IMG/VR virus record: IMGVR_UViG_2885593961_000002
Location: 14,432 to 78,431 of that record
DNA: 64,000 nt
Source: a virus
Taxonomy: Duplodnaviria; Caudoviricetes
Direction: 5' to 3' (one strand)
Under the pieces are notes generated by a model that was not told the origin of the DNA, made no database searches, and worked only from the letters and a program-made list of their open reading frames with translations. The position numbers were made by a program, and so were the translations under genes. This document shows, piece after piece, positions 47,833 to 61,218 of the stretch (positions within the stretch are counted from its first letter, which is position 1; each line of letters starts with the position of its first letter).

Positions 47833-50800
47833 ATGATTGTCGAAGAAGAACGCCCTATCCAGAGCATCCGTGGCGCGAGCGGCGGTGGCTCCAGCTCGCC
47901 CACGCGAACGGACGACAACCTGTTTTCCCGAGACGTCGTCGAGATCGTCCTTGGACTTTCTCAAGGCCCGATTCGAGGACTGGTCGACGGCATGAAGACC
48001 TTCTACGTCGGCGGGACGCCTCTCATGTCGCAGGACGGATCGCTGAACTTCAGCTCGTTCAATCTCGGCGTCAAGCTCGGCACCGCGCACGACTCTCCGG
48101 TCAACTACGTCCTTGGGGGCGAAAGCTCGAACACCCAGGTCGGCACGCGGCTATTTCAAGGGACGTGGGTCAACCGACAGACCGACCAGTCGTTGAAAGG
48201 CGTGATCGACCAACTGCAAGTACGAATGCAGTTCAATGTCCTCTACGTTCAGAACAACGACGGCTCCTTCAACAACACGGCGCGCTTCCGAATCCAGTAT
48301 CGTCCAGCGTCCAGCTACGCCGCGTGGTCAGAGGTTCAGGGCGGATTGATCAAGGTTACCGGCAAGACCACGAGCGGCTACATGGTCGACTACTCGTGGG
48401 ACGTACCTCGTATCAACGACAACTGGGTAATTCGGGTACTGAAGGAGAATCCGGACGCCAGTACGACGGAGTTCTGCGACCTGACCTGGGAAAGCTTCCA
48501 GATGGTCACGAAAGGGAACCGCTCGTACAACCAAGTCGCGCTCCTGCATCTGGTCGCCAAGGCGACGAGCCAGTTCAGCTCGATCCCCGACTTCGCTGGC
48601 ATCTACGACGGGCTGGAAATCCTCGTGCCGACGAACTACAACGGCGACATGCACTCGTACGACGCGAGCGGCCCGTGGAACGGGACATTCAAGCTCGCGT
48701 GGACGAACAACCCGGCGTGGATTCTGTACAACCTCATCATGAACCCCACATGGGGTCTCGCGAAATATTACCCGTGGATCACCTGCAACCGCTTCGATTT
48801 CTATGATGCGGGGCGCTGGTGTGACGAGATGGTCCCTGACGGTCGCGGTGGCTGGCAACCGCGCTACACTTTCAACCTCGCTCTGACCGACCAGCAGACC
48901 GGCCTTGACATGCTGCGATACGTCGCCGGCAGCTTTGGTGCGGTCATCTTCGACGACGCAACAGGCATGGTTCACCTCCGCGTCGACAAGTGGGAAGAAC
49001 CTACCTTGATGTTCACGCCCGAGAACGTGACGCCGGAAGGCTTCAGCTACACGTTCACGGACATGTCGACACGCTACAACGACTACGAGGTCCAGTTCGT
49101 CAACCCTGACATTGACTGGAACGTCGACCATCGGCGTGTCCCATATGACGAGCACATCGCGCTCAACGGCAGCATTCCCTATCAGTTTCAGGCGATCGGC
49201 TGCACGAACGAGCACGAAGCCGTTCGCCGCGCCACTTATCAGCTGATCACGTCGACCACTGAGTGTGCGACCGTATCGTTCATGACCGCGCGCCTTGGCC
49301 GCGTCATCGACCCTTACAAGCCGATCTACGTCGCCGACCCGATCACCGGCTGGTCGTCGGGCGGTCGCATTAAGTCCATCTTCAACAACAAGATCTATCT
49401 GCGCGACCCGGTCTACTTTACGATCAACCAAAACTACAACCTTCGGCTTCAGTCTGTCGACGGATTGTGGAACCTCGTCGTGAACCCCGGCAAGACCGGG
49501 GCCGTGACTGAGTTGACGATCGTGAGCGGCGTCATTCCGCCGAACATTCCGGATCGCACGGTTTTCACGATCGAGGACAACGGTGGATTTGGGATTGCGA
49601 AACCCTTTCGTACGATCGCGATCGAGCCAGTTGACAATCAACCTGACACCTACAAGGTTACGGCTGTCGAGGTCAACGTCAACAAGCAAGCAGCAGCGGA
49701 CAACTGCGTGCCGATCGGCAGCAAGCAGTATTCGTTCAAAAACCCGCTGATCCCACCCCCGCCGACGAACATGGTCATGGCCTCCGGGACGGAGCAACTG
49801 ATCATCGGTCAGGACGGCTCGATTCAAGCGCGCATCCTCGTATCGTGGGACCCACCTGCAAACGCGATCGTCAAGCGCTACGACGTGCAGTGGAAAGAGA
49901 GTTCTCAGTCGACATGGCTCACTGCGAGCACGACGGGTGAAAGCATTTTCCTCGGCCCTTGCAAGAGCGGCGTCGACTACGACATCACGGTGTGGGCAAT
50001 TAGCACGTTCGACTACCGCAGCTCGCAACTGTCCGCGTGGAACTATCGATGCGTCGGTAAGGATGATCCGCCGAGCAACGTGACGAACTTCAACGTGATC
50101 CGTCGTCAGAACGACATTCTGCTGAAGTGGGACCCCATCCCTGATCTCGACCGCGCTGGTTATGAGATCCGCCTTGGCACATCGTGGGAGACCGGAACTG
50201 TTCTCGTGACCGACTACGCAGCGACGCAGTTCGCATGGACGACGGATACAGGGGGGGCATACTCCTTCATGATCCGAGCCATCGACACGAGCCACAACTT
50301 CTCGCCGATTCCGACGATCCAGACCATCGCGTTGTATGGTCCCTCCTCCGTGCGCGGCGTCATCGCTGTTCAGTCGGCGAACCGGATTGAGATGAGCTGG
50401 AAGCCGAACCCGGAAGACAACATCCTCGACTACGAGATCCGTGAAGGCGACACCTGGGCCACTGCGGTGTTCGTAGCGAAGACGAAATCTACAAGCTTTG
50501 GTCTTACAGCCGGCGCAGGTGGTACGCGCAAGTTCTGGCTGAAGTCGATCGCCGCGCCGGGCATCTATTCGGACAAGGCAACGTTCGTCACGACCGACGT
50601 CGCGCAACTCGACAACACAAACATTGTGTACGAGTCGGACGAACTGTCGAAAGGTTTCACCGGCATGCGGTACAACATGGTGGTCTACGGCGACTCTCTG
50701 CGGATGGACGACGGCAAAGCGAAGGCTGAGTACATTTTCAGCGTGTCGCTTCCGACGAGCTTCCGCGCGCAGAATACGCTCTTCATCGGTCTCGATGCGA

Positions 50801-51438
50801 TTGTCGACTTCACTATGCGCTGGAAGGATGCAACCTTCCCGTGGGACGACGCCAAGGCACAGATGCCGTGGGCTGCGGAGGGCGACATCTCGTCGATCAA
50901 CTACCGCGCCGAGATTGCAACACTCTCGGCTCTACCCGCCGACGTTCTTTATGCGATCAAGCTCGACAACACACTGGGTTTCTCCGGCCCCGGTGAGGAT
51001 GGGGCGGTCTCCGAGCAACAGACGGTTAGCTACCGCGCTGGGAAGTACGGGTCGGGCCTTTTCGTGCAAACCGCACCGCTCCAACCGGTCCCGACTCGCG
51101 TCACCTTCGACGTCAATGTCCCGAACGTGTTCTCGACGAGCTTTTGGGTCATCCCGTACGACAACAACGACGACACATGGTCTAGCTTCTGCGGGAGAAA
51201 TGGCGCGCAAATCACGATCGGCTATCAAGCATCGACGATGAGTGTCTACGCGATCGACAACAACGGCAAAAAGATCTCCATCCCGATCGATCTTGAAATA
51301 GGCGAACGCTATTTCGTCGCGATTTCGCAGGACACGAACACGCGCACATTGTATGTCGGCCGCGAAGGTGGATCGATATTCCGTGGGACCCTCAACGTCC
51401 AGGGTATCGGCCAAACTATCAACTACAGTCTGTACTGA
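47833..51438 (+). CDS. central tail tip / host-specificity protein (lambda gpJ-like) with Fn3 and C-terminal LamG-like domains
   Basis: LSQGPIRGL, WTNNPAWILY, PRYTFN, IGCTNEHEAVR, Fn3 repeats LKWDP / MSWKPN. Confidence 0.9.
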   Translation: MIVEEERPIQSIRGASGGGSSSPTRTDDNLFSRDVVEIVLGLSQGPIRGLVDGMKTFYVGGTPLMSQDGSLNFSSFNLGVKLGTAHDSPVNYVLGGESSNTQVGTRLFQGTWVNRQTDQSLKGVIDQLQVRMQFNVLYVQNNDGSFNNTARFRIQYRPASSYAAWSEVQGGLIKVTGKTTSGYMVDYSWDVPRINDNWVIRVLKENPDASTTEFCDLTWESFQMVTKGNRSYNQVALLHLVAKATSQFSSIPDFAGIYDGLEILVPTNYNGDMHSYDASGPWNGTFKLAWTNNPAWILYNLIMNPTWGLAKYYPWITCNRFDFYDAGRWCDEMVPDGRGGWQPRYTFNLALTDQQTGLDMLRYVAGSFGAVIFDDATGMVHLRVDKWEEPTLMFTPENVTPEGFSYTFTDMSTRYNDYEVQFVNPDIDWNVDHRRVPYDEHIALNGSIPYQFQAIGCTNEHEAVRRATYQLITSTTECATVSFMTARLGRVIDPYKPIYVADPITGWSSGGRIKSIFNNKIYLRDPVYFTINQNYNLRLQSVDGLWNLVVNPGKTGAVTELTIVSGVIPPNIPDRTVFTIEDNGGFGIAKPFRTIAIEPVDNQPDTYKVTAVEVNVNKQAAADNCVPIGSKQYSFKNPLIPPPPTNMVMASGTEQLIIGQDGSIQARILVSWDPPANAIVKRYDVQWKESSQSTWLTASTTGESIFLGPCKSGVDYDITVWAISTFDYRSSQLSAWNYRCVGKDDPPSNVTNFNVIRRQNDILLKWDPIPDLDRAGYEIRLGTSWETGTVLVTDYAATQFAWTTDTGGAYSFMIRAIDTSHNFSPIPTIQTIALYGPSSVRGVIAVQSANRIEMSWKPNPEDNILDYEIREGDTWATAVFVAKTKSTSFGLTAGAGGTRKFWLKSIAAPGIYSDKATFVTTDVAQLDNTNIVYESDELSKGFTGMRYNMVVYGDSLRMDDGKAKAEYIFSVSLPTSFRAQNTLFIGLDAIVDFTMRWKDATFPWDDAKAQMPWAAEGDISSINYRAEIATLSALPADVLYAIKLDNTLGFSGPGEDGAVSEQQTVSYRAGKYGSGLFVQTAPLQPVPTRVTFDVNVPNVFSTSFWVIPYDNNDDTWSSFCGRNGAQITIGYQASTMSVYAIDNNGKKISIPIDLEIGERYFVAISQDTNTRTLYVGREGGSIFRGTLNVQGIGQTINYSLY

Positions 51439-51439
51439 C

Positions 51440-51901
51440 ATGGCACACGTAATTTCCGATATCACCATCTCAAAGAAGGTGCTCGACGACGATGGCTTCC
51501 TCACGCTTCTGACTTCGGACAGCCCTACCGGCTATGCACCATTTCAACCGTTTGTGCAGGGTGACTACGAGTATCAAACTGCCCTCTTCCGCATCTCGAT
51601 GAACTCGACTTCCGGCGACCGGGGTGTGATCAACAAGCTTAGCGTTGTCGTCGACGTTCCGGATATGTTTGACAGCGGTGACAACATCATCGACGGTACG
51701 ACACCGACACGCATATTCTTCTCGCGACCGTTCCACGTACCACCGAAAGTGACGTTGACCGTACAGAGCGCGAGCGACCCATGCACCGCGAAGCTGGTTT
51801 CAGGTTCGATCACACGTACGTATTTCGACTGCTTCCTGGAGCGAGTCTCGGATAAGGCGAAGATCGATGGCGCTTTGACTTGGGCAGCACACGCGTACTG
51901 A
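51440..51901 (+). CDS. tail-tip accessory protein resembling a gpJ C-terminal segment
   Basis: GDYEYQ..LFR, VDVPD, FSRPFHVPPKV, W.AHAY. Confidence 0.7.
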   Translation: MAHVISDITISKKVLDDDGFLTLLTSDSPTGYAPFQPFVQGDYEYQTALFRISMNSTSGDRGVINKLSVVVDVPDMFDSGDNIIDGTTPTRIFFSRPFHVPPKVTLTVQSASDPCTAKLVSGSITRTYFDCFLERVSDKAKIDGALTWAAHAY

Positions 51902-51907
51902 AATCCC

Positions 51908-51936
51908 TTGGGCGCTCTGGCCAGCGCTCGTAAAAT
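51908..51936 (+). promoter_or_regulatory. sigma70-like promoter for the fibre-radical SAM unit
   Basis: TTGGGC-17-TAAAAT. Confidence 0.55.
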
Positions 51937-51962
51937 TCGGTTTGCTAACGGACACCACCACG

Positions 51963-53441
51963 ATGCAGAACTACACACAGATTCCGGAAAGTCAGCGAGT
52001 CTCCGACTCGCTGGCTCCGCTGCTCAACAACGACCTCACAGCGATCTCGCGCAACGCTGGCGACTCATTTCCGATCAACGGTCTTCAGATCGGCATGCCG
52101 TACCTGAGCACGTCGCAGAACAAGCTTTTCCGCCTTGCGAGCCTGACTCCGGTCACGTGGGTGGTCGAGATCGACTACAACCGTACGATCGCCTACCAAG
52201 ATTCGATCGACGCGCTCTCAGCAGCAATTGGCACGCGCGTCTTGAAGAGCGGCGACAACATGACTGGTCCGCTCACCCTCTCCGGAGACCCATCCCAGGC
52301 GTTGCATGCCGCGCCAAAGCGGTACGTTGACGCGCAGGCGCAGGCAGCGACTACCGCAGCGAACAACCGCGTGTTGCGCTCGGGCGACCAGATGAACGGC
52401 CCCCTGACGCTTTCGGGCGACCCGTCACAGCCCTACCACGCCGCGACGAAAAACTACGCCGACTACCTCTACAACTCGCTGAATAACGCCAAGCTCGGCC
52501 GCAACGGCGACACGGTGGCCGAGCTGTATAACAACGGCTGGTTCCGTTCGAACGGTCAGGTAGGCTGGTACAACCAGACGTACGGCGGCGGCATCCACAT
52601 GACTGACAGCAGCTACGTGCGGGTGTATGGAGGCAAAGGGTTCGCGACCGACACACACACGCTCGAACAAGGCACGGGTGGAATCTGGACCTCGCGCTAC
52701 GGGTGGCTGGAAAACTGCTTTGCCGGCAAAGGTGCAGAAGATCGACTCAATTCGGTCGGCACGCTCGACGGTGGCGACGGATGGCGCCCCGGTGGCTGGC
52801 CGTGGGTGCCCAACGGCGTGATCGCGCCTCAGTCCTTCTACCTCCAGCGATCCGGCAATCAGGTCCAGCTCGTCCGTGTTTGGGGCAACTGCAACTGCAA
52901 CTGTGCATGCACGTGCTTCCCAGCCGGCACTCGAATCATGATGGCTGACCGGAGTTGGAAGTACGTCGAACAGATCGAGATTGGCGACATTGTCATGACG
53001 CCGCTTGGGCCGGAAGCCGTGCTCGACGTCGAGACGCCGCTGCTGGGCGATCGAAAGATGATCTCGTTCGAGGATCGTTCATTCTTCTGGACCGACGATC
53101 ACGCGTTTTGGACGCGCCGCGACGGCGTGCAGGCGTTTGGCGTGGTAGACAAACAGTCGTGGTTGCGAGGCGTCGAGACGGGTGTAGTGAAAGGCCTGCC
53201 GAACAATGACGACGTTCGCGTTCTGGATGACCGATGGGATGAGTTCGCCCACATCAACGGCTGGCAACGCAAGCGAGTGGTCGAACACGACATGAATCCC
53301 AACACGAAGGTCTATCTGCCAATCGTCGGCGGATGCCACATGATCATCGCCGAAGGATACGTCGTCTCGGCCGGCGCAAACGGATTCGACTTCGATTACA
53401 ACACTTTCGAATGGAAAGGACTCAGCCATGTTGGTGCATAA
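51963..53441 (+). CDS. tail fibre with Cys-rich NCNCNCACT segment and C-terminal Hint (intein-like) domain
   Basis: Two GDxMxGPLTLSGDP...HAAxKxYxD repeats; WFRS.G..GWY..TYGGGI.M.D...VR fibre segment; CFPAGTRIMMAD...VEQIEIGDIV...TDDHAFW...VYLPIVGGCHMIIAEGYVV. Confidence 0.85.
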   Translation: MQNYTQIPESQRVSDSLAPLLNNDLTAISRNAGDSFPINGLQIGMPYLSTSQNKLFRLASLTPVTWVVEIDYNRTIAYQDSIDALSAAIGTRVLKSGDNMTGPLTLSGDPSQALHAAPKRYVDAQAQAATTAANNRVLRSGDQMNGPLTLSGDPSQPYHAATKNYADYLYNSLNNAKLGRNGDTVAELYNNGWFRSNGQVGWYNQTYGGGIHMTDSSYVRVYGGKGFATDTHTLEQGTGGIWTSRYGWLENCFAGKGAEDRLNSVGTLDGGDGWRPGGWPWVPNGVIAPQSFYLQRSGNQVQLVRVWGNCNCNCACTCFPAGTRIMMADRSWKYVEQIEIGDIVMTPLGPEAVLDVETPLLGDRKMISFEDRSFFWTDDHAFWTRRDGVQAFGVVDKQSWLRGVETGVVKGLPNNDDVRVLDDRWDEFAHINGWQRKRVVEHDMNPNTKVYLPIVGGCHMIIAEGYVVSAGANGFDFDYNTFEWKGLSHVGA

Positions 53442-54138
53442 GGTACTCATCCCCGACGATCTGACGGATGAGCAGCGCGCCCAAGCGTACGGCATCGTCA
53501 CTGTCATCCCAACACCTACCGGTTTCACTATGCAGTCGACGGACCTGAGCCTCTACTGGCAGTTCGACTTGAACAAAGTGGAGCACGGTAATGACGTCCT
53601 GCATCTCGTGCGTGCTCGCAACGGACAGTACGTAGTCGTGTGGGGCAGCGACATCCACGAGTCAAAGGACAGCCTGTCGTCCGCTCTTCTTCGAAAGAAC
53701 ATTGATTCTTTTATGCCGCTCGTTCTCGTCGGTATCAACGAAGAGATGAACGCCTACACGGCGGTATTCTTTTGCCACACTGTCGAGCCGGCCAATTCAG
53801 CGCCAACCGTGGATCTGTCGGATGAAAGCGGCGACATGGTCCTAAAGCGGCTCATGCCGGCAATTGCGCCCGTTATCGACCGCTGGCATGCGAAACACAA
53901 GCTGCTGAAAGACATCAAGACAAACGACGCGCTTGCCGCACTGGAAGCGCAGGTGGATCTGCTCACCGAGTTGCTATTTTCGATCCTGCCGGCCGACGCA
54001 TTTCCATCTGATAAACGACAGAAACTCCTTGACGCTGGTGTGCTGAAAATGAAGGATGGGGACCTCGCTTTCAACGACATGGTCGCCTTCAAGACGACGC
54101 TCCGCGCGCGGCAGGCGACGTACCTAGCCACCAGATGA
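53428..54138 (+). CDS. accessory protein, possible fibre chaperone or maturase partner
   Basis: Overlaps both neighbours; C-terminal NDALAALEAQVDLLTELL helix. Confidence 0.7.
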   Translation: MLVHKVLIPDDLTDEQRAQAYGIVTVIPTPTGFTMQSTDLSLYWQFDLNKVEHGNDVLHLVRARNGQYVVVWGSDIHESKDSLSSALLRKNIDSFMPLVLVGINEEMNAYTAVFFCHTVEPANSAPTVDLSDESGDMVLKRLMPAIAPVIDRWHAKHKLLKDIKTNDALAALEAQVDLLTELLFSILPADAFPSDKRQKLLDAGVLKMKDGDLAFNDMVAFKTTLRARQATYLATR

Positions 54139-55487
54139 CCACCTTCCGCCTGAAGACGGTCGACGCCTCCGGAGTCGGCCGTGACTTTTTCTACAACAAC
54201 CAACGAAGCACCCTCACCGACCAGCGTGGTTGCGACGTCGTGTCCGAGCGTCCGAGCGAGCCGCGCGCGCCGGCCGCGCCCCCTGGGCGTAAAGACCGCG
54301 TTGTTCGCACGCTGAAGATCCAGCTCGGCCTGTCGTGCAACTACAGCTGCGAATACTGCTCGCAACGATTCGTGCCGCACGCGGACCAAGCCAACCCCGG
54401 CGACGTCGACGTGTTCATGTCCCATCTCACGGCAAACTGCTATCTCACCGAGGACGCGACGGTCGAGTTTTGGGGTGGCGAGCCAATGGTGTACTGGAAG
54501 ACGCTGAAACCGCTCGCTGAGCGGCTGCGGATGCGTTACCCAGGCGTCACCCTTCGGATGATCACGAACGGCTCTCTGATCGATCACATGAAGGCTGGAT
54601 GGCTCATTTCGATGGGGTTCACGGTCGGCATCTCGCACGACGGGCCGGGGCAGAAGGCACGAGGTCAAGACCCCCTCGATAACCCCTTGACGCGGGAAGC
54701 GATCCTGATGCTGTACCAGCGCCTGCGCCCGCTGAACCGGATCTCCTTCAACGCGATGCTGCACAAGGAAAGCACGTCGCGACTCGCGGTGCGCGACTAC
54801 TTCATCAAGCTGACGGGCGACACCGAAGTACCGATCGGAGAAGGCATGTTCGTCGACGCGTACGACGAAGGTGGCCGCTCGATGTCGTTTCACGACACGC
54901 ACGAGCACGTCCGCTACCGCGCTCGCGCCTTCGACGAGCTGAAGAGCGGCAACGCACTCAATTTCGACAGCGTCACGCAGAAAATCGTGGACTTCGGCGA
55001 GTCCGTGGTCACTCGGCGCGAAGCACGCACGCTCGGCCAGAAGTGCGGAAGCGACCGCGCTGACACCCTGACGATGGACCTAAAGGGCAACGTGCTGACG
55101 TGTCAGAACGTGTCGGCGGTAGCGGTTGCGCCGAACGGCCAGCCTCATCTCGCCGGCAACGTTCAGGACATGGACGCAGTCCAGCTCAAGTCCTCGCGCC
55201 ACTGGTCGACCCGCGAACACTGCAACTCGTGCCCCGTGCTTCAGCTCTGCAAAGGTAGCTGCATGTTCCTCGAAGGCGACTTGTGGGATGTCACCTGCGA
55301 GAGCGCGTACAGCGATAACGTCGTATTTATGGCCACGGCTCTCTACGAGCTGACCGGCTGCACACTTCAGCGTATCGAGCCGCTAACCGGCACGCTGCCT
55401 GAGCATCGCCAGATCGTCTTCGGACCTCTGGCCAACAAGCGGACCACCACCCGCAAAATCATTCAGATCAAAACGGAAACACCATGA
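54135..55487 (+). CDS. radical SAM enzyme with SPASM domain
   Basis: CNYSCEYC, EFWGGEP, MITNGSL, ISHDG; SPASM KCG...DLKGNVLTCQN...CNSCPVLQLCKGSC...C. Confidence 0.95.
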   Translation: MTTFRLKTVDASGVGRDFFYNNQRSTLTDQRGCDVVSERPSEPRAPAAPPGRKDRVVRTLKIQLGLSCNYSCEYCSQRFVPHADQANPGDVDVFMSHLTANCYLTEDATVEFWGGEPMVYWKTLKPLAERLRMRYPGVTLRMITNGSLIDHMKAGWLISMGFTVGISHDGPGQKARGQDPLDNPLTREAILMLYQRLRPLNRISFNAMLHKESTSRLAVRDYFIKLTGDTEVPIGEGMFVDAYDEGGRSMSFHDTHEHVRYRARAFDELKSGNALNFDSVTQKIVDFGESVVTRREARTLGQKCGSDRADTLTMDLKGNVLTCQNVSAVAVAPNGQPHLAGNVQDMDAVQLKSSRHWSTREHCNSCPVLQLCKGSCMFLEGDLWDVTCESAYSDNVVFMATALYELTGCTLQRIEPLTGTLPEHRQIVFGPLANKRTTTRKIIQIKTETP

Positions 55488-55825
55488 GCGATCAACAAGC
55501 TACCCCCCTGATGAACGAAGGCCAGATGATGCACCACGTGCTGACGCAACAGCGCAATGAGCTGGCGGATCGCCTCGCTCACGCGAGCGTTGCAGCGGGT
55601 CAAGCCGAACAGCAATTGCAAGCTCTGGCTTCGGCAAACGCAACTCTGCAATCTGTGCTCGACGAGGCGAATGCCGCGCTCGAAGCGACGAAGAGCGCGC
55701 TGGTCGAGAGCCAATCGCGCGCCCATCGGCTTCAAATGAGCCTCGACGACGCCAACCGGAAGCTTTCCGCGCAGCCGCGTTCGGTTGAAGCCGCCCCCTC
55801 GTCGGTTGATCCGATACCCGCGTAA
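55484..55825 (+). CDS. coiled-coil protein (113 aa)
   Basis: Heptad-rich; 4-bp overlap with the radical SAM gene. Confidence 0.75.
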   Translation: MSDQQATPLMNEGQMMHHVLTQQRNELADRLAHASVAAGQAEQQLQALASANATLQSVLDEANAALEATKSALVESQSRAHRLQMSLDDANRKLSAQPRSVEAAPSSVDPIPA

Positions 55826-55839
55826 CTACATGAAGTTGG

Positions 55840-55873
55840 TGCTAAGTGAACCACTTAGGTTCACTTAGCATTT
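55840..55873 (+). terminator. 13-bp perfect hairpin closing the fibre unit
   Basis: TGCTAAGTGAACC-ACTTA-GGTTCACTTAGCA followed by TTT; short U tract. Confidence 0.55.
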
Positions 55874-55888
55874 CGAGTGCAAAACTCT

Positions 55889-55918
55889 TTGTGTCTGCGT
55901 AAACCCCAACCTTAAAAT
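55889..55918 (+). promoter_or_regulatory. sigma70-like lysis promoter
   Basis: TTGTGT-18-TAAAAT preceded by AAAACTC. Confidence 0.5.
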
Positions 55919-55951
55919 TCTCGGCACTCACCACCACCACACGAGTCCGAG

Positions 55952-56485
55952 ATGTCTATTACGTCCGACCAGCTTCGGAAGCTCTGGACGCACGCACCGA
56001 TCGACAGATGCGCCACGTACGCGCCCCTGCTCTCGGACGCGATGGCGAAGTTCGAGATCGATACCCCGGAAGAGATCGTCGAGTTCCTGGCTCAGATCTC
56101 GCATGAGTCAGCCGAGGGGCGCTACACGCTGGAGATCGCCAGCGGACAAGCATACGAGGGACGCAAGGACCTCGGCAACACGCAACCGGGCGACGGCGTT
56201 CGCTACAAGGGCCGCGGCCTGATCCAATGTACCGGTCGGATCAACTACCTGCTGATGGGCATGCTGCTTGACCTCGACCTGATCGCGCACCCGGAACTGC
56301 TGGAGCAACCGCAGTACGCGTGCCTCAGTGCTGCTGCCTTCTGGTGGAACCACAAGCTCGACAACCTCGCGTTGAAGAGGAACTTCATCGCGGTCACGAA
56401 GGTGATCAACGGCGGCACGAACGGTCTCGCGGATCGTCAAGCGTATCTCGCGCTCGCACGAAAGGTCATTCCGGGAGCCGCCTAA
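55952..56485 (+). CDS. endolysin, glycoside hydrolase family 19
   Basis: FLAQISHES, YEGRKDLGNTQPGDG.RYKGRGLIQ.TGR.NY, SAAAFWW, TKVINGGTNG..DR. Confidence 0.95.
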   Translation: MSITSDQLRKLWTHAPIDRCATYAPLLSDAMAKFEIDTPEEIVEFLAQISHESAEGRYTLEIASGQAYEGRKDLGNTQPGDGVRYKGRGLIQCTGRINYLLMGMLLDLDLIAHPELLEQPQYACLSAAAFWWNHKLDNLALKRNFIAVTKVINGGTNGLADRQAYLALARKVIPGAA

Positions 56486-56898
56486 TGACGACTCGCAACG
56501 GTGACTTCTTCGCCCGCCTCGGCTTCACGACATGGGTGCTTGTTGTCGTCGTGCTTTCGAGGTGCCACGCAAGTTCGATCCCCGCCGCGACGATGCAACA
56601 CGGCGGCTGGTTCTTTACTGTCTTGCTGCTCGTTGCCGGCGCACTGCTTCTGGTCGACATCGTGGTCAATGACTTGATGCCCGACCGATACGTTTTCACG
56701 TGGGGGTTGAAGTGGCGTCATTGGGTTTATCCGATGGCGTCGTTCTCCTTTGCGTCTCATCTGTTCGTTGCTGAGCAGGCTTACAAGAGTGTGCAGATAA
56801 GCGCCCTCGTTCTCTATGGCTCGATGGCTGTGTTTGGCCTGACGCTGAGTTTTCGCAATCTTTTTCACGTACGGGGTCGAGCGTGCAGCGAACGATAA
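56485..56898 (+). CDS. membrane protein, holin or antiholin candidate
   Basis: About 4 hydrophobic segments; TAATG coupling to the endolysin gene. Confidence 0.65.
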   Translation: MTTRNGDFFARLGFTTWVLVVVVLSRCHASSIPAATMQHGGWFFTVLLLVAGALLLVDIVVNDLMPDRYVFTWGLKWRHWVYPMASFSFASHLFVAEQAYKSVQISALVLYGSMAVFGLTLSFRNLFHVRGRACSER

Positions 56899-57278
56899 AG
56901 GTATGGGCGATGTTCCTCGCTCTCACGTGGTCTCTCGTCACCTACGCGGCAACGCGTAGCGACGTATCTTTCGGGCGGGATCTGGCCAGTATCCCCGTCA
57001 TCGCGTACGTGATCACGGTCATCCTCAGCAGCATCGGCGGCGCTGCGTCGACGCTGCAAAAGCTGTCGAACGCCGAAGATCTGTCGCGCTGGAAGCTGCA
57101 CGTCGCGCGAGACATGGTCTCCTCGATCGCAGCCGGCTTGCTTATGTTCTTCATCGCCGAATCGTTCCGCTGGGATTCCGCTCAGGAGGCCGCGGCCATC
57201 ACAGTCGCCGGGTACGGCAGCTCGAAGCTGTTCGACGCGGTCATGACCCGCATTCTGCAAAAGGTGGATACCGCATGA
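56883..57278 (+). CDS. holin candidate
   Basis: 3-4 TM helices; SIGGAAS and AGYGSSKL motifs. Confidence 0.7.
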   Translation: MQRTIKVWAMFLALTWSLVTYAATRSDVSFGRDLASIPVIAYVITVILSSIGGAASTLQKLSNAEDLSRWKLHVARDMVSSIAAGLLMFFIAESFRWDSAQEAAAITVAGYGSSKLFDAVMTRILQKVDTA

Positions 57279-57790
57279 AATTGACCACCATTGCCGCGCT
57301 CTGCGCCGCTCTCCTGAGCGGTGCTGGCGCTTTCTACTTCACCCGCGACCACTACGTTGCGCTCATGGCCGAGAACGACGATCGGCAGCAGAAAGCCGTG
57401 CGTGCCGCTCAAGAGCGGGCGGACGCGGTAGCGGCATTCGCTACCACAACGTCGAACCTGCTGGTCACGCGGATCTCGACCGATTACGAAAGGAAGCTCA
57501 ACGATGCGAAGTCTCAAGCCGACCGCGACATTGCTGCTGCCCGCGCTGGTGCTCTGCGCCTGCGCGACCGAGCCGCAACCTGTGGCAATCAATCGACCCA
57601 AGGTACAGCTGGCCCCGGTGCCGGCATATCTGCTGACACCGGAGGAGCCGAACTTTCGCTGCCGGCTACTGAGTTTCTTCTCAGCGAAGCCGGCCGAGCA
57701 GACGGAATCGTGCTCAAGCTCAACGCCTGCGAAGCGGTCGTCCGGAGCGACCGAGACGTTCTCGATCGTTTGAATGCAGGTGCGCAATGA
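57275..57790 (+). CDS. Rz: inner-membrane spanin
   Basis: N-terminal TM helix, coiled coil, GALRLR, ADGIV..L.ACEA. Confidence 0.88.
   Translation: MKLTTIAALCAALLSGAGAFYFTRDHYVALMAENDDRQQKAVRAAQERADAVAAFATTTSNLLVTRISTDYERKLNDAKSQADRDIAAARAGALRLRDRAATCGNQSTQGTAGPGAGISADTGGAELSLPATEFLLSEAGRADGIVLKLNACEAVVRSDRDVLDRLNAGAQ
57504..57773 (+). CDS. Rz1: outer-membrane spanin lipoprotein embedded in Rz
   Basis: Lipobox LCAC, Pro-rich (P.PAYLLTP), lies fully inside Rz in another frame. Confidence 0.85.
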   Translation: MRSLKPTATLLLPALVLCACATEPQPVAINRPKVQLAPVPAYLLTPEEPNFRCRLLSFFSAKPAEQTESCSSSTPAKRSSGATETFSIV

Positions 57791-58404
57791 TCGCCGCCCC
57801 TCTCCCGCTCGCCCCGACCAATCCTGACGGTCAGCCGCTCGTCTTGATGATGAGTCCGGTCTACAACAATCTCGGACAGCTTACCCCGATGAAACTGCTC
57901 TACGGCCGCGGAGCGCCGGCCAATAACGTCGGTAACGACGGCGACTCGTACATCAACCTGGACAACAGCTTCATGTTCGGCCCGAAGACGGGCGGTGTCT
58001 GGCCGAGCGGCTACAGCATCAAAGGCGACAAGGGCGACAAAGGCGATACCGGCGACGTCAACAAGACGCCGATCGCGCGCATGAACGTGACCGGCAACGG
58101 TCTCGACCTGGACCTGTCGACCGGCATCGGCTGTTTCAACGCGACGATCAACTCCCCGCAGACGGCTATCACGATCAGCAACCCGGCCACCGATGCGAAC
58201 TTCGTCCGCTCGTTCTCGCTCGTGCTCAAGCAGGGCACCGGCTCGAACAAGGTCAGCACTTGGCCGGCGATTATCAAATGGAACGGTGGCGTCGCACCCG
58301 TCCTGTCGTACGCACAAGGTGTGAGCGACGCCTTCATGTTTGAAACCTACGACGGTGGCAAGTCGTACGTCGGCTACTTCGTCGGCAACAACATTCCTGC
58401 GTAA
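57787..58404 (+). CDS. virion fibre-type protein with short collagen-like stretch
   Basis: G.GAP...GNDGD.YI, KGDKGDKGD, C-terminal LVLKQG.G...TWP..IKW.GG.AP.LS. Confidence 0.75.
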   Translation: MIAAPLPLAPTNPDGQPLVLMMSPVYNNLGQLTPMKLLYGRGAPANNVGNDGDSYINLDNSFMFGPKTGGVWPSGYSIKGDKGDKGDTGDVNKTPIARMNVTGNGLDLDLSTGIGCFNATINSPQTAITISNPATDANFVRSFSLVLKQGTGSNKVSTWPAIIKWNGGVAPVLSYAQGVSDAFMFETYDGGKSYVGYFVGNNIPA

Positions 58405-61218
58405 ATGAACCGGCTCTACCTGTCCCGTCAGTCCCTCAACCAGCTCGCCGCGAATGCGAACTCGATGCTGGATGGCCTCATGCAGTTCGTGGATCGTCAC
58501 ACGAAAGACGACCCTGACACGGGTCAGGACTACATGATCGTCAACAGCAAGAGCGTGCTTTGCAACAACATGCACTACGAGACGGGGAGCGTCTGGTACA
58601 CCCCGAATGGCACGGCCACGACCGAAGGTCAGGCCCTGTACATCCTCGGCCTCTACTACGCATGGAAGGGCACCGGCAAGCGCTCCTACCTCGACCGCGC
58701 CGTGCGCGCCATCGACGCGTACCTCGATCTGTTCTATGCCGGCCAGTCGACACCGACCACGCCGCAGATCTACCGTGCGAACTGGATCATCAACGGCAAG
58801 CGCCCGTTCCAGGCCTTCGGCCCGCTGGACCCGAACAACCCGGATAGCCCCGGTGGCAAGGGTGTCCAGGTTCAGTTCACGAACGGGGTGGGCCAGATCC
58901 CGACCGGCGATCCGTATAACGGCCAGCTCATCACGCGACTCTACTCCGTCTACAACGGAAAGCTCTCGTACGACTCAGTGCGCTCGGGGGTCAATGCTGG
59001 CGGCACGGTCTACCCGTTCGCTTCGTACGTAACGTACGACGGCGTACGGCACAACGCCGATCAGGATCCGATCGACCCGAACGGCGACGCGCCGGGGACG
59101 ATTCGCCTCGTCGACGCGACGTTCACGGGCACGGCACTGGTCAACTACGCGAACATGACCGGCCCGATGATCGGTCGCAACCAACCGTTCGACGTCTGGC
59201 CGATCTGGATGGCGCTGACGCCCGACCAGTGGGGCAATTCAATCGACTCGGAGCAGTGGTTTGCCGAAGCCTGCTACTTGATGTTCCAGGAGACTGGCAA
59301 TCCCCGCTACTTCAACGCATTCAACGCGTCGATCTATACGATCAACGACGCGACGGACCTTCAAGCTGACGGATTCTATTTCCGCCAGGATTCGAGGGCA
59401 GCGGACCCGTTTAACGTGGGCATCGCGTACGACTGGGAATACCTCGGCGACGCGAAGGCGACGGTCAATCGCGACAGCAGCGGTTACATCCACGTGTCGA
59501 AGACCGCTGAATCGAATGTGAACAAGGAGAGCACGGTCGCGCTCGAACAGATCGCCGTCTACACGCGCATCGACTCCAGCAAGACGGCGATGGTCAACAC
59601 CATCGGCATCAACACGCCGAAGGCGCGCATCGAGTTCCTGACGCGGATGAAGACCGACCTCCTGAGCGCCGGCCGGCAGTATCGCTTTGCCCTGCCCTCG
59701 AACGGTAGCGTGACGCCGACGCCGATGGTGGTTCCGTTCGGCCAGATGGTCACGGCCACGCAATCGGACGGCCAGCAGCACGCCATGCTCGACGGTTCGA
59801 GCTTCGTGCCGTACGGCAACGCCGGCTACACCACCACGTACGAGGGCGGCATCCTCGGCGACGCTGGCCGCGCTGACTGGATCGGCACGGCCAACATCAA
59901 TGACGGCACTTCCGGTGTCGTCGCCGGCTTCTGGCTCGCAACACCGACCACCCGCGCCCTCACGTCGTTGACGTACCGGGTGAACAGCGGCGAGATCTGG
60001 TTGAAGGTCACGGACGCGCTTGGCAATAAGTATCAGCGCGTGCTGCCCTCCGGTGGCTGGACCACACTGCCGCTGAGTTGGTCAGACTTCACGCTCGTGC
60101 CGAATCAGGCGGCAGGCACACCGGCCGCACCGACGCCGAATGGTGCGATGACGCAGATCGAATTCATCACGAACAACGGCCAAGGCGGCTCGATCTCGAC
60201 GTACTGCTGGGGCGAGATCCCGCAGAAGCTCGTGTCGGTCAACGACTACTCGACCGAGTGGTTCATCCATGTGAAATGCCAGCCGGCGATGGAGATGGCA
60301 GTGGGAGACGTGTATGCGTCCAATCCCGCCCCCCTCGCGCTGAAATACACACCTGGAGTGCTTCCATTCACGACGAAGTATTCAGTCTCTCGCGCGCGGA
60401 AGGATTACTGGCGAGGCACACCGTACACCGGCTACCAGTATGGGCCGATGTGGGTGCTCTCGGGCAAGACCCAGTATTACACCAACTGCATCGCCTTCTA
60501 CTACGACGCTCAGGAAGCGTACGCGAAGAAGATCGGCGTCATGGGTCCGGTTGCGCCGCTATATGTATGGCCACGCTATGACCAGCTCGATCAAGGCCCC
60601 ATCGACACGTTCGCATGGGGTACGGACAAGCCGTACCCGTGGGCGGGATACAACGCGCGCGCGTTCTTTGCAGGTTGCCGGATGTGGCAGTTGCTCGTGC
60701 AGCAAGGTTTCCCTGTCGATACCCGACTCATCACGTTTTGTGAGCGCTACGCGAAGTATCTGGCTGACTTCCAGGATGCAAACGACAACCTGACGCCAAC
60801 TGAATTTCCACCCGACAAGCCGGCGTTCAACGATGACTACGACCACACCGGCCATATGACGGCGCTGTACATGGCAGGTGCTGTCTGTATGAAGTTCGCC
60901 GGCTCGAAGTCGGCCTACGTCGATCGTGTGATCAACGGCTGCATGGTCGAATTTACACGCACGCAGGTGATCGAAGACCCGACTGGTCCCTACTCCGACA
61001 TGAGCGGTGCCTATTCAAGCTGGTCACACGGACACTACTTCTACGGGTTTTGGGCGGGCGAAATCATGCGCGCGCTAGGTCTTTTAATGATGTGGAACCT
61101 ACGCAACCAACAAGGTGCAGGCATCCAAATCGAAGAATCGAACATCCTGCTTGAAAACGCATCTGGCCATATCGCCGCAGAAGACGGCACCTTGATCAAA
61201 ACAGAGACCTCCCTATGA
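58405..61218 (+). CDS. putative polysaccharide depolymerase, GH8-like (alpha/alpha)6 barrel with inserted beta/CBM domains
   Basis: TTEGQALYILG (compare GH8 SEGQGY), NSIDSEQWFA (compare ATDGD..IA), CBM11-like W.T..L.WSDF segment. Confidence 0.6.
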   Translation: MNRLYLSRQSLNQLAANANSMLDGLMQFVDRHTKDDPDTGQDYMIVNSKSVLCNNMHYETGSVWYTPNGTATTEGQALYILGLYYAWKGTGKRSYLDRAVRAIDAYLDLFYAGQSTPTTPQIYRANWIINGKRPFQAFGPLDPNNPDSPGGKGVQVQFTNGVGQIPTGDPYNGQLITRLYSVYNGKLSYDSVRSGVNAGGTVYPFASYVTYDGVRHNADQDPIDPNGDAPGTIRLVDATFTGTALVNYANMTGPMIGRNQPFDVWPIWMALTPDQWGNSIDSEQWFAEACYLMFQETGNPRYFNAFNASIYTINDATDLQADGFYFRQDSRAADPFNVGIAYDWEYLGDAKATVNRDSSGYIHVSKTAESNVNKESTVALEQIAVYTRIDSSKTAMVNTIGINTPKARIEFLTRMKTDLLSAGRQYRFALPSNGSVTPTPMVVPFGQMVTATQSDGQQHAMLDGSSFVPYGNAGYTTTYEGGILGDAGRADWIGTANINDGTSGVVAGFWLATPTTRALTSLTYRVNSGEIWLKVTDALGNKYQRVLPSGGWTTLPLSWSDFTLVPNQAAGTPAAPTPNGAMTQIEFITNNGQGGSISTYCWGEIPQKLVSVNDYSTEWFIHVKCQPAMEMAVGDVYASNPAPLALKYTPGVLPFTTKYSVSRARKDYWRGTPYTGYQYGPMWVLSGKTQYYTNCIAFYYDAQEAYAKKIGVMGPVAPLYVWPRYDQLDQGPIDTFAWGTDKPYPWAGYNARAFFAGCRMWQLLVQQGFPVDTRLITFCERYAKYLADFQDANDNLTPTEFPPDKPAFNDDYDHTGHMTALYMAGAVCMKFAGSKSAYVDRVINGCMVEFTRTQVIEDPTGPYSDMSGAYSSWSHGHYFYGFWAGEIMRALGLLMMWNLRNQQGAGIQIEESNILLENASGHIAAEDGTLIKTETSL

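Follow-up and report, generated by a model that had tools for sequence, protein, structure and literature searches.

A tail-fibre gene and a gene for a radical S-adenosylmethionine (SAM) enzyme were found in one group of four genes in the window, i.e., the whole stretch of 64,000 nucleotides (nt) analysed from the record IMGVR_UViG_2885593961_000002. The window is a part of this 78-kb IMG/VR provirus record, which is a Burkholderia prophage. It is syntenic with the siphovirus Achromobacter phage JWF, and the enzyme region is 95% identical to a region of Burkholderia paludis MSh1. The fibre ends in a short ladder of alternating Asn and Cys residues followed by a Hint domain, and the enzyme is a candidate for modifying this ladder.

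The group starts with a tail-fibre open reading frame (ORF) of 499 amino acids (aa) from TTG 51942 (51942-53441). It is followed by the gene of a 236-aa accessory protein (53428-54138), the gene of the 450-aa radical SAM/SPASM enzyme (54135-55487), and the gene of a 113-aa helical or coiled-coil protein (55484-55825), which is the final gene before a hairpin. All are placed on the + strand and are translationally coupled, with successive overlaps of 14, 4, and 4 nt. The four overlapping genes, i.e., fibre, 236-aa protein, radical SAM/SPASM enzyme, and coiled-coil protein, had been proposed in an earlier reading of the DNA (hereafter the original prediction), and all four ORFs were present as described there. 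The coordinates given in that reading were also correct, including those of the Cys-rich segment of the fibre. The homologues of the fibre start at ATG 51963, so a protein of 492 aa is more likely than one of 499 aa.

The tail-fibre body was assigned to residues 8-315 (51963-52886, + strand). It is comprised of an attachment region at the N-terminus, two fibre repeats, and a tip region that resembles Shufflon_N. The protein matched phrog_16641, i.e., tail fiber, at 1.7e-9 and Shufflon_N at 30.3 bits, and annotated tail fibres were hit in tblastn searching. The gene is the second after the gpJ homologue, and the synteny in phage JWF is identical. Fibre-type repeats and a position in the tail module, which are the features expected of a phage tail fibre, were both found.

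The Asn-Cys ladder, N316-C-N-C-N-C-A-C-T324, follows the body directly (52887-52913, + strand). From the ORF translation and the alignment, it was predicted to be both the substrate of the enzyme and the mature C-terminus of the fibre. The segment NCNCNCACT-C was located exactly at 52887-52916, running from N316 to T324 and then to C325. Three ladder Cys residues were invariant in the fibre alignment (A3). In 62 distinct tails, the non-Cys positions were occupied by Asn (69%), Ala (12%), Asp (10%), Gln (2%), and Thr (2%), and the motif is repeated 3-11 times back to back in phage tails.

Hint domain and radical SAM/SPASM enzyme

A C-terminal autoprocessing domain of the Hint (bacterial intein-like (BIL)/hedgehog) type was predicted from Cys325 to the end of the fibre protein (52914-53441, + strand) by alignment, profile, and predicted fold. 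In the alignment of homologues from three lineages, Cys1 (C325), a Phe, the T-x-x-H motif (T-D-D-H), an Asp, and several Gly residues were invariant. The Pfam family Hom_end_hint was sub-threshold here (24.5 vs. 32.1 bits; first 31 residues) and above the cut-off in the homologue of locus L037 (34.5). The profile search of PDB with the domain hit 8w20 (2.6e-9) and PI-SceI (7.6e-7). The AlphaFold2 (AF2) model of the domain showed a predicted local distance difference test (pLDDT) score of 80-93 in its core, and the 20-25 residues after the core were unmodelled. The best Foldseek matches of the model were BIL2 (6tmm, 9.5e-7), the gp41-1 intein, a Clostridium BIL domain (2lwy), and hedgehog (1at0), with a probability of 1.00. 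Both marks of the Hint superfamily, i.e., Cys1 with the block B T-x-x-H and the Hint fold, were found.

In the Hint alignment, no conserved terminal Asn or His-Asn and no C-extein nucleophile were detected, and the domain ends the protein. A homing intein was considered and rejected, as the C-extein, an endonuclease-sized insert, and the splicing residues are all absent. Because the protein ends with the Hint domain and carries neither a terminal Asn nor a downstream nucleophile, the domain would cleave or transfer at its N-terminus only, with no splicing.

The ladder is the genetic C-terminus in 79 loci, where 0-11 residues come after it. The Hint domain follows the ladder in 12 loci, plus L037, L038, and L039. 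These loci are spread over three or more separate enzyme clades in a tree that was built with FastTree only and has uncertain deep branches. The 314-aa Hint-less fibre of locus L018 can be aligned with residues 8-323 of the present fibre and terminates at ...NCNCACDCC, where the Hint domain starts. The domain is therefore an extra part on a homologous fibre. The tails expected after removal of the domain (…NCACT, …NCNCS, …NCGTC, and …NCSSS) resemble the termini of the Hint-less proteins (…NCTCK, …NCACK, and …NCGNG).

There is good indirect evidence, from comparison of homologues, that the Hint domain would cleave itself off between T324 and C325 and expose the ladder, because the cleavage residues are invariant, the splicing residues are absent, the L018 fibre ends where the domain starts, and the predicted tails resemble natural termini. 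It had been suggested that the domain cleaves right after the Cys segment and leaves it at the mature C-terminus. This suggestion fits the comparative data, i.e., the 79 Hint-less loci, the L018 fibre, and the invariant cleavage residues.

The hedgehog Hog and BIL domains are alike in being C-terminal Hint folds with Cys1 and T-x-x-H which cleave the preceding bond without splicing. The domain here differs from them in being fused behind the Cys ladder of a phage fibre and linked to a radical SAM enzyme. Such a fibre-Hint fusion was not found in the literature on phages, tail fibres, and Hint and BIL domains. The Peptidase_S74 chaperone of tail fibres and tailspikes is also a C-terminal domain of phage fibres which removes itself after doing its job. 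However, its fold and mechanism are unrelated, i.e., a Ser-Lys dyad in place of the Cys thioester of the Hint domain.

Other forms of Cys-tailed proteins were observed. In L027:5243-5617, L029:5302-5670, and L015:2089-2430, the Cys-tailed protein is separate and small (113-133 aa), with a second internal Cys-rich block in some cases. Such small proteins directly follow a fibre with the self-cleaving Peptidase_S74 in several large phage contigs. The proteins of L107:3004-3927, L108, and L163:44-943 (- strand) are full of spaced Asn-Cys pairs, and behind the ladder they carry an extension of about 170-190 aa which starts with ...SKIICAKLY... and has no Pfam match. In L103:6464-6931, an acidic Gly-Asp tail follows the ladder instead of this extension.

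The enzyme (54135-55487) was recognized by phrog_1802, TIGR04085, and its Cys motifs. It carries the radical SAM motif CX3CX2C at C68/C72/C75 and a SPASM motif with all seven Cys residues, i.e., C304-x13-G318-x4-C323, C363xxC366x5C372x3C376, and C388. The description of the gene product as a complete radical SAM/SPASM enzyme was thus borne out. The CX3CX2C and the seven SPASM Cys residues were all invariant in 15 diverse homologues, down to 33% identity. The enzyme fell into phrog_1802 (2.1e-60) and scored 32 bits against the SPASM model TIGR04085 (cut-off 27). Fer4_12 was above its cut-off, and PF04055 was slightly below (24.9 vs. 29.5).

The best equivalog models were those of the geopeptide, PapB-family, and QhpD enzymes, at about 50 bits against cut-offs of 340-450. 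The scores of TIGR04463 and TIGR03906 were far below their cut-offs. In the PDB profile search, the enzyme matched TvgB (8vpo, 2.7e-22), CteB (5wgg, 2.6e-16), and an anaerobic sulfatase-maturating enzyme (anSME, 3.8e-15). Its profile aligned at full length, i.e., SAM core and SPASM, with CteB and the PapB family (model 58-377). As no equivalog model was passed and the closest solved relatives are TvgB, CteB, and anSME, the enzyme is regarded as a distinct SPASM clade whose chemistry is not settled by homology.

Two groups of relatives show how the enzyme stands among the known ones. TvgB (PDB 8VPO) is its best solved relative in sequence, with a match along the entire enzyme, and likewise acts on a short motif repeated in tandem. 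However, TvgB is a cyclopropylglycine synthase that makes C-C bonds within Val and needs no Cys. PapB (freyrasin) and CteB (SCIFF) form multiple thioethers on Cys-rich C-terminal cores. They differ in having an N-terminal RiPP recognition element (RRE; RiPP, ribosomally made and post-translationally modified peptide), which is not detectable in the phage enzyme, and their substrates are peptides of 40-50 aa. With seven rather than eight invariant SPASM Cys residues, the phage enzyme would have one cluster site open for a substrate thiol, as in CteB, which would fit thioether formation better than another chemistry.

Linkage of Cys tails and the enzyme

The pairing of Cys tails with the enzyme was surveyed from both sides. 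In the enzyme-anchored survey, 42 IMG/VR loci were fetched, of which approximately 35 had enough upstream flank. A same-strand (x-Cys)n tail with n of at least 3, rich in Asn-Cys, was found in 33 of these approximately 35 loci. In bacterial genomes and metagenome-assembled genomes (MAGs), 220 relatives of the enzyme were found, mostly in Burkholderiales such as Limnohabitans. The loci of 80 of the 220 were fetched, 55 of them had at least 3 kb upstream, and the Cys tail was present in 54 of the 55. When viral and genome loci were taken together, 87 of approximately 90 adequately flanked loci showed an enzyme-adjacent Cys tail. The tail protein of the exception, L094 (5735-6775), matches that of L091 at 100% over residues 1-300 and then continues in another reading frame. 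The tail was probably lost by a frameshift or by an error in MAG assembly.

In the tail-anchored survey, a DNA pattern for NCNCNCxC was used, 120 loci were taken among the matches listed, and a tail was called terminal when the motif lay within 12 residues of the C-terminus. Among the matches listed, 60 tails were C-terminal, and 46 of them were accompanied by the enzyme family, always on the same strand and at a median distance of 1.3 kb downstream. The enzyme was found in all terminal-tail loci with at least 4.5 kb downstream (24/24), and in the 14 loci that lack it the downstream sequence is shorter than 3.6 kb. Of the non-terminal in-frame matches listed, only 2/23 had the enzyme (terminal vs. 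non-terminal, Fisher p = 1.5e-8). The cultivated phages JWF, 2-1, and Ralstonia RSP15 showed the tail-enzyme pairing too.

Whether counted from the tail or from the enzyme, the linkage is near-obligate. The original prediction had named the co-occurrence of (NC)n fibres, Hint domains, and SPASM genes as a check, and radical SAM genes unlinked to Cys-rich fibres as a ground for giving it up. The check was positive, and the linkage held from the enzyme side (33/~35 and 54/55) as well as from the tail side (24/24). By the same counts, a Cys-rich substrate encoded beside the enzyme, as expected of a thioether maturase, was found.

A further set of seven unrelated viral contigs (L136, L137, L138, L145, L161, L200, and L235) carries ORFs of 60-90 aa in which ...KCKNCNCNCHC... 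is internal, and a radical SAM gene is absent from their vicinity. These ORFs appear to be a different small Cys-rich family.

Predicted fibre maturation and alternative explanations

It is probable, at moderate confidence, that this locus encodes a phage fibre whose mature C-terminal (Asn-Cys)n ladder is thioether-modified by a dedicated radical SAM/SPASM enzyme, and that the fibre is made here as a Hint-cleaved precursor. The pairing of tail and enzyme is repeated in well over a hundred other phage loci, and chemical modification of fibre tips by phages is therefore probable.

The following course is proposed. The fibre precursor would carry the ladder N316-T324 and, behind it, the Hint domain, and the peptide ending ...VRVWGNCNCNCACT would be the candidate substrate of the enzyme. 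The enzyme would bind the tail in the host cytoplasm, and one of the tail Cys residues would probably ligate an auxiliary Fe-S cluster at its open site. The 5'-deoxyadenosyl radical would take a hydrogen atom from a neighbouring Asn, or Ala or Asp, and thioether bridges from Cys sulfur to carbon would form along the ladder. The Hint domain would then carry out an N-to-S acyl shift at the T324-C325 bond by means of Cys325 and the T-x-x-H motif. When the thioester is resolved, the 175-aa Hint domain would be released and the ladder left as the C-terminal, presumably distal, end of the fibre. The benefit might be a tip that is rigid, protease-resistant, or able to bind a metal or a receptor. We infer in this scheme the action of the enzyme on the tail, the bond type, the order of modification and cleavage, and the benefit to the phage.

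By analogy with characterized enzymes, thioethers between Cys and Asn would be the most likely reaction, because NCNC is an overlapping array of the NxxC motif. NxxcB forms a thioether from Cys to the beta-carbon of the Asn three residues before it in NxxC, and Asn, Ala, Gln, and Asp are used or tolerated as acceptors (PMC9389541). In the streptococcal radical SAM RiPP (RaS-RiPP) pair NxxcB/NxxcA, the likeness to the phage system lies in the motif and in the acceptors, i.e., the N, A, Q, and D acceptors mirror the x positions of the tails. However, NxxcA is a short peptide with a leader and belongs to a cluster regulated by quorum sensing, whereas the phage substrate would be the C-terminal end of a structural protein longer than 300 aa, for which no leader or RRE was found.

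Protein-sized substrates of SPASM enzymes have precedents in QhpD/QhpC and CrpC/CrpA (PMC13692751). In CrpC/CrpA of Methanococcus voltae and in QhpD/QhpC, ranthionine thioethers are placed on a Cys-rich repeat protein encoded next door. Unlike the phage system, these are cellular archaeal or bacterial proteins with motifs of the C-x-x-Q/D type, and CrpC has an RRE. The phage system is distinguished from CrpC and QhpD by the virus, the fibre as substrate, the (NC)n at the extreme C-terminus, and the Hint domain that can follow it.

Several points weigh against thioether maturation of the fibre. Modification, cleavage, or presence in virions was observed for no member of the family. The best solved relative of the enzyme by sequence, TvgB, is a cyclopropylglycine synthase, and homology does not fix the chemistry. 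No equivalog cut-off was passed, i.e., the PapB family scored 49.9 against 340, the SCIFF maturase 24.6 against 425, and TIGR04463 30.6 against 525. No RRE or PqqD-like leader-binding domain was detected by sequence, and the N-terminal extension of about 55 aa has no Pfam match. The ladder region has a pLDDT below 50 in the AF2 model. Moreover, the hosts are aerobes, which is workable for cytoplasmic radical SAM enzymes but is a constraint.

Of the alternatives, a different chemistry on the same ladder survives best, although it is judged rather unlikely. The enzyme might convert Cys to formylglycine, form C-C or cyclopropane-type cross-links, epimerise residues, or modify Asn. TvgB is the best solved relative of the enzyme (8vpo, 2.7e-22) and anSME is close behind (3.8e-15). 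GenBank uses the label "radical SAM domain-containing protein", and the JWF homologue is called an "anaerobic sulfatase-maturating enzyme". Related loci also add 2-oxoglutarate (2OG)-Fe(II)-oxygenase-like genes and a second radical SAM gene, so that more than one reaction on the Cys tails is suggested. Against this, the strict alternation of Cys with N, A, D, and Q fits the known thioether acceptors. Identity with anSME was rejected, as TIGR03942 scored 41.2 bits against a cut-off of 349 and the C/S-x-P/A-x-R motif is absent from the fibre, including the C-x-P/A-x-R form in the tail. The formylglycine option, which the original prediction had held out beside cross-linking, is for these reasons the less likely chemistry.

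A metal-binding role of the ladder is quite improbable. In this explanation, the ladder would mainly be a metal- or Fe-S-binding element of a trimeric fibre tip, and the enzyme would have an assembly or chaperone-like role or another target. The His-x-His iron sites in the tip of T4 gp37 would be comparable. Alternating residues in a beta-strand would put all Cys on one face, which would suit coordination along the trimer axis. CrpA was also proposed to bind metals, and no modification was observed. However, a dedicated radical SAM enzyme is not required for binding a metal, yet tail and enzyme show near-obligate linkage from either side, and the catalytic motifs of the enzyme are all invariant. 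Metal binding and cross-linking would also be compatible with each other.

The least probable explanation, i.e., that the Hint thioester transfers the fibre C-terminus onto a neighbouring subunit, a small molecule, or a tail thiol (making a cycle) as in hedgehog or BIL domains, is favoured by the best structural matches being BIL2 of the Tetrahymena BUBL locus and other BIL/hedgehog domains, not splicing inteins, and by the absence of C-terminal splicing residues, but 79 loci are without a Hint domain vs. 12-15 with it, the Hint-less proteins just end after the tail, and no sterol-recognition-like or acceptor domain is evident. Because most members are without the domain, whatever it adds would be dispensable for the system.

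A bolder form of thioether maturation can be considered and is held to be doubtful. Inter-chain as well as intra-chain thioethers would make a covalent knot at the distal fibre tip. The three tails would be kept in register by the Hint domain, which would leave only after cross-linking. Such covalent stapling of a virion organelle, enzymatic and of the RiPP type, would be needed for adsorption and present in hundreds of phages of aerobic proteobacteria.

Accessory genes, flanking elements, and significance

The 236-aa accessory protein (53428-54138, + strand) has a beta domain at its N-terminus and a helical domain at its C-terminus, and the motif ALExQVDLLT is conserved in it. No family was found for it in Pfam, PHROGs, or NCBIfam. 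Its relatives were confined to 17 clusters from Burkholderia prophages and JWF-like phages, and in L016 and L020, two loci without a Hint domain, distant homologues immediately precede the enzyme. The pLDDT of its AF2 model was 55, Foldseek against viral models gave nothing below E = 0.04, and ESM Atlas gave no usable match. The protein may help the enzyme of this lineage or the folding of the fibre.

For the 113-aa protein, only weak coiled-coil matches were found, and its homologues were detectable only in the JWF-like group. By sequence comparison, the 236-aa and coiled-coil proteins are lineage-specific and outside the conserved core. The four coupled genes exist, but the claim that they make a self-contained unit was overstated, as these two proteins are specific to the JWF/Burkholderia lineage.

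In other lineages, different genes are placed between the tail protein and the enzyme. Such companion genes were observed at L015:2439-3329, L015:3326-4192, L012:6321-6947, L016:4517-5149, and L024:5963-6979. They include a family of about 300 aa ending ...GLxxGDxxxVKxG... and a family of about 288 aa (like RSP15 ORF046), both unnamed. Others encode proteins of about 205 aa that match 2OG-Fe(II) oxygenases weakly, and L024 carries a second radical SAM enzyme in this place. The comparison of the 236-aa protein with the family of about 300 aa, which follows the tail protein in other lineages, was negative in profile-profile searching (probability 0.1%).

A putative promoter, TTGGGC-N17-TAAAAT, lies before the fibre gene (51908-51936, + strand). 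The original prediction had taken these hexamers as the promoter of the group. The hexamers are there, TAAAAT is invariant and CCTTGGG is largely conserved in nine relatives including JWF. However, the sigma-70 consensus scan of 51300-56100 found no promoter, and the hexamers at 51908 scored 8/12, i.e., below the threshold. A small inverted repeat, GGGCGCT...AGCGCTC, was found at 51911-51931 in the spacer between the -35-like and -10-like hexamers. It shows compensatory changes in the relatives, in which the closing pair is UA in three, GC in three, and AU in one. This repeat could be a regulator site or an RNA hairpin.

At the other end, a 14-bp hairpin (55839-55871, + strand) is the probable terminator of the fibre operon. 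Its folding energy is -25.1 kcal/mol (z = -5.8), and 0/200 shuffles were as good. An annotated terminator is placed at the equivalent position in JWF. The terminator scan did not report this hairpin, because the T run is too short for the rule of the scan. A 13-bp hairpin had been expected at 55840; it is real and stronger than claimed.

Upstream of the group, the gpJ homologue (47833-51438) is followed by a small protein with an H-type-lectin-like end and then by the four fibre genes. The small gene was listed at 51353-51901, and its true start is probably 51440; the homologues begin at residue 30 of the ORF. Its H-type lectin match is weak (22 bits, below the cut-off). In L012, L018, and L019, the Cys-tailed fibre is directly preceded by a protein of 396-455 aa, and an H-type-lectin-like domain forms the C-terminus of this protein.

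Downstream, the region 55952-61218 shows a lysis cassette sandwiched by two fibre modules, and the gene order is the same in JWF. The cassette contains a GH19-type endolysin (55952-56485) and membrane proteins, along with a spanin-like gene (57275-57790). In the second fibre module, a 205-aa tail-fibre protein (57787-58404) is followed by a 937-aa tail protein of phrog_2871 (58405-61218).

In the literature on phage tail fibres, radical SAM enzymes, thioethers, Hint, and BIL domains, no account was found in which a radical SAM enzyme is coupled with a phage fibre or with a fibre that ends in a Hint domain. Aravind 2010 (dioxygenases), the 2020 conflict-systems paper, and the reports on cyanophage S-SCSM2R and phiCbK were considered and set aside, as they treat other matters than a tail-enzyme module. 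To our knowledge, cross-linking by radical SAM/SPASM enzymes is known for small antibiotic-like peptides and two cellular proteins, and has not been described for viruses. The new points here would be RiPP-type radical SAM maturation applied to a virion protein and the fusion with a Hint domain.

The system is a compact and genetically linked pair of enzyme and substrate, with a simple repeat as substrate and a Hint domain as a built-in self-cleaving tag. It is attractive for enzymology and protein engineering. If thioether maturation of the fibre is true, structure predictions of fibres, recombinant receptor-binding proteins, and engineered fibres would miss a required maturation step unless the enzyme is co-expressed, and the modified ladder would be a new kind of post-translational modification of the virion.

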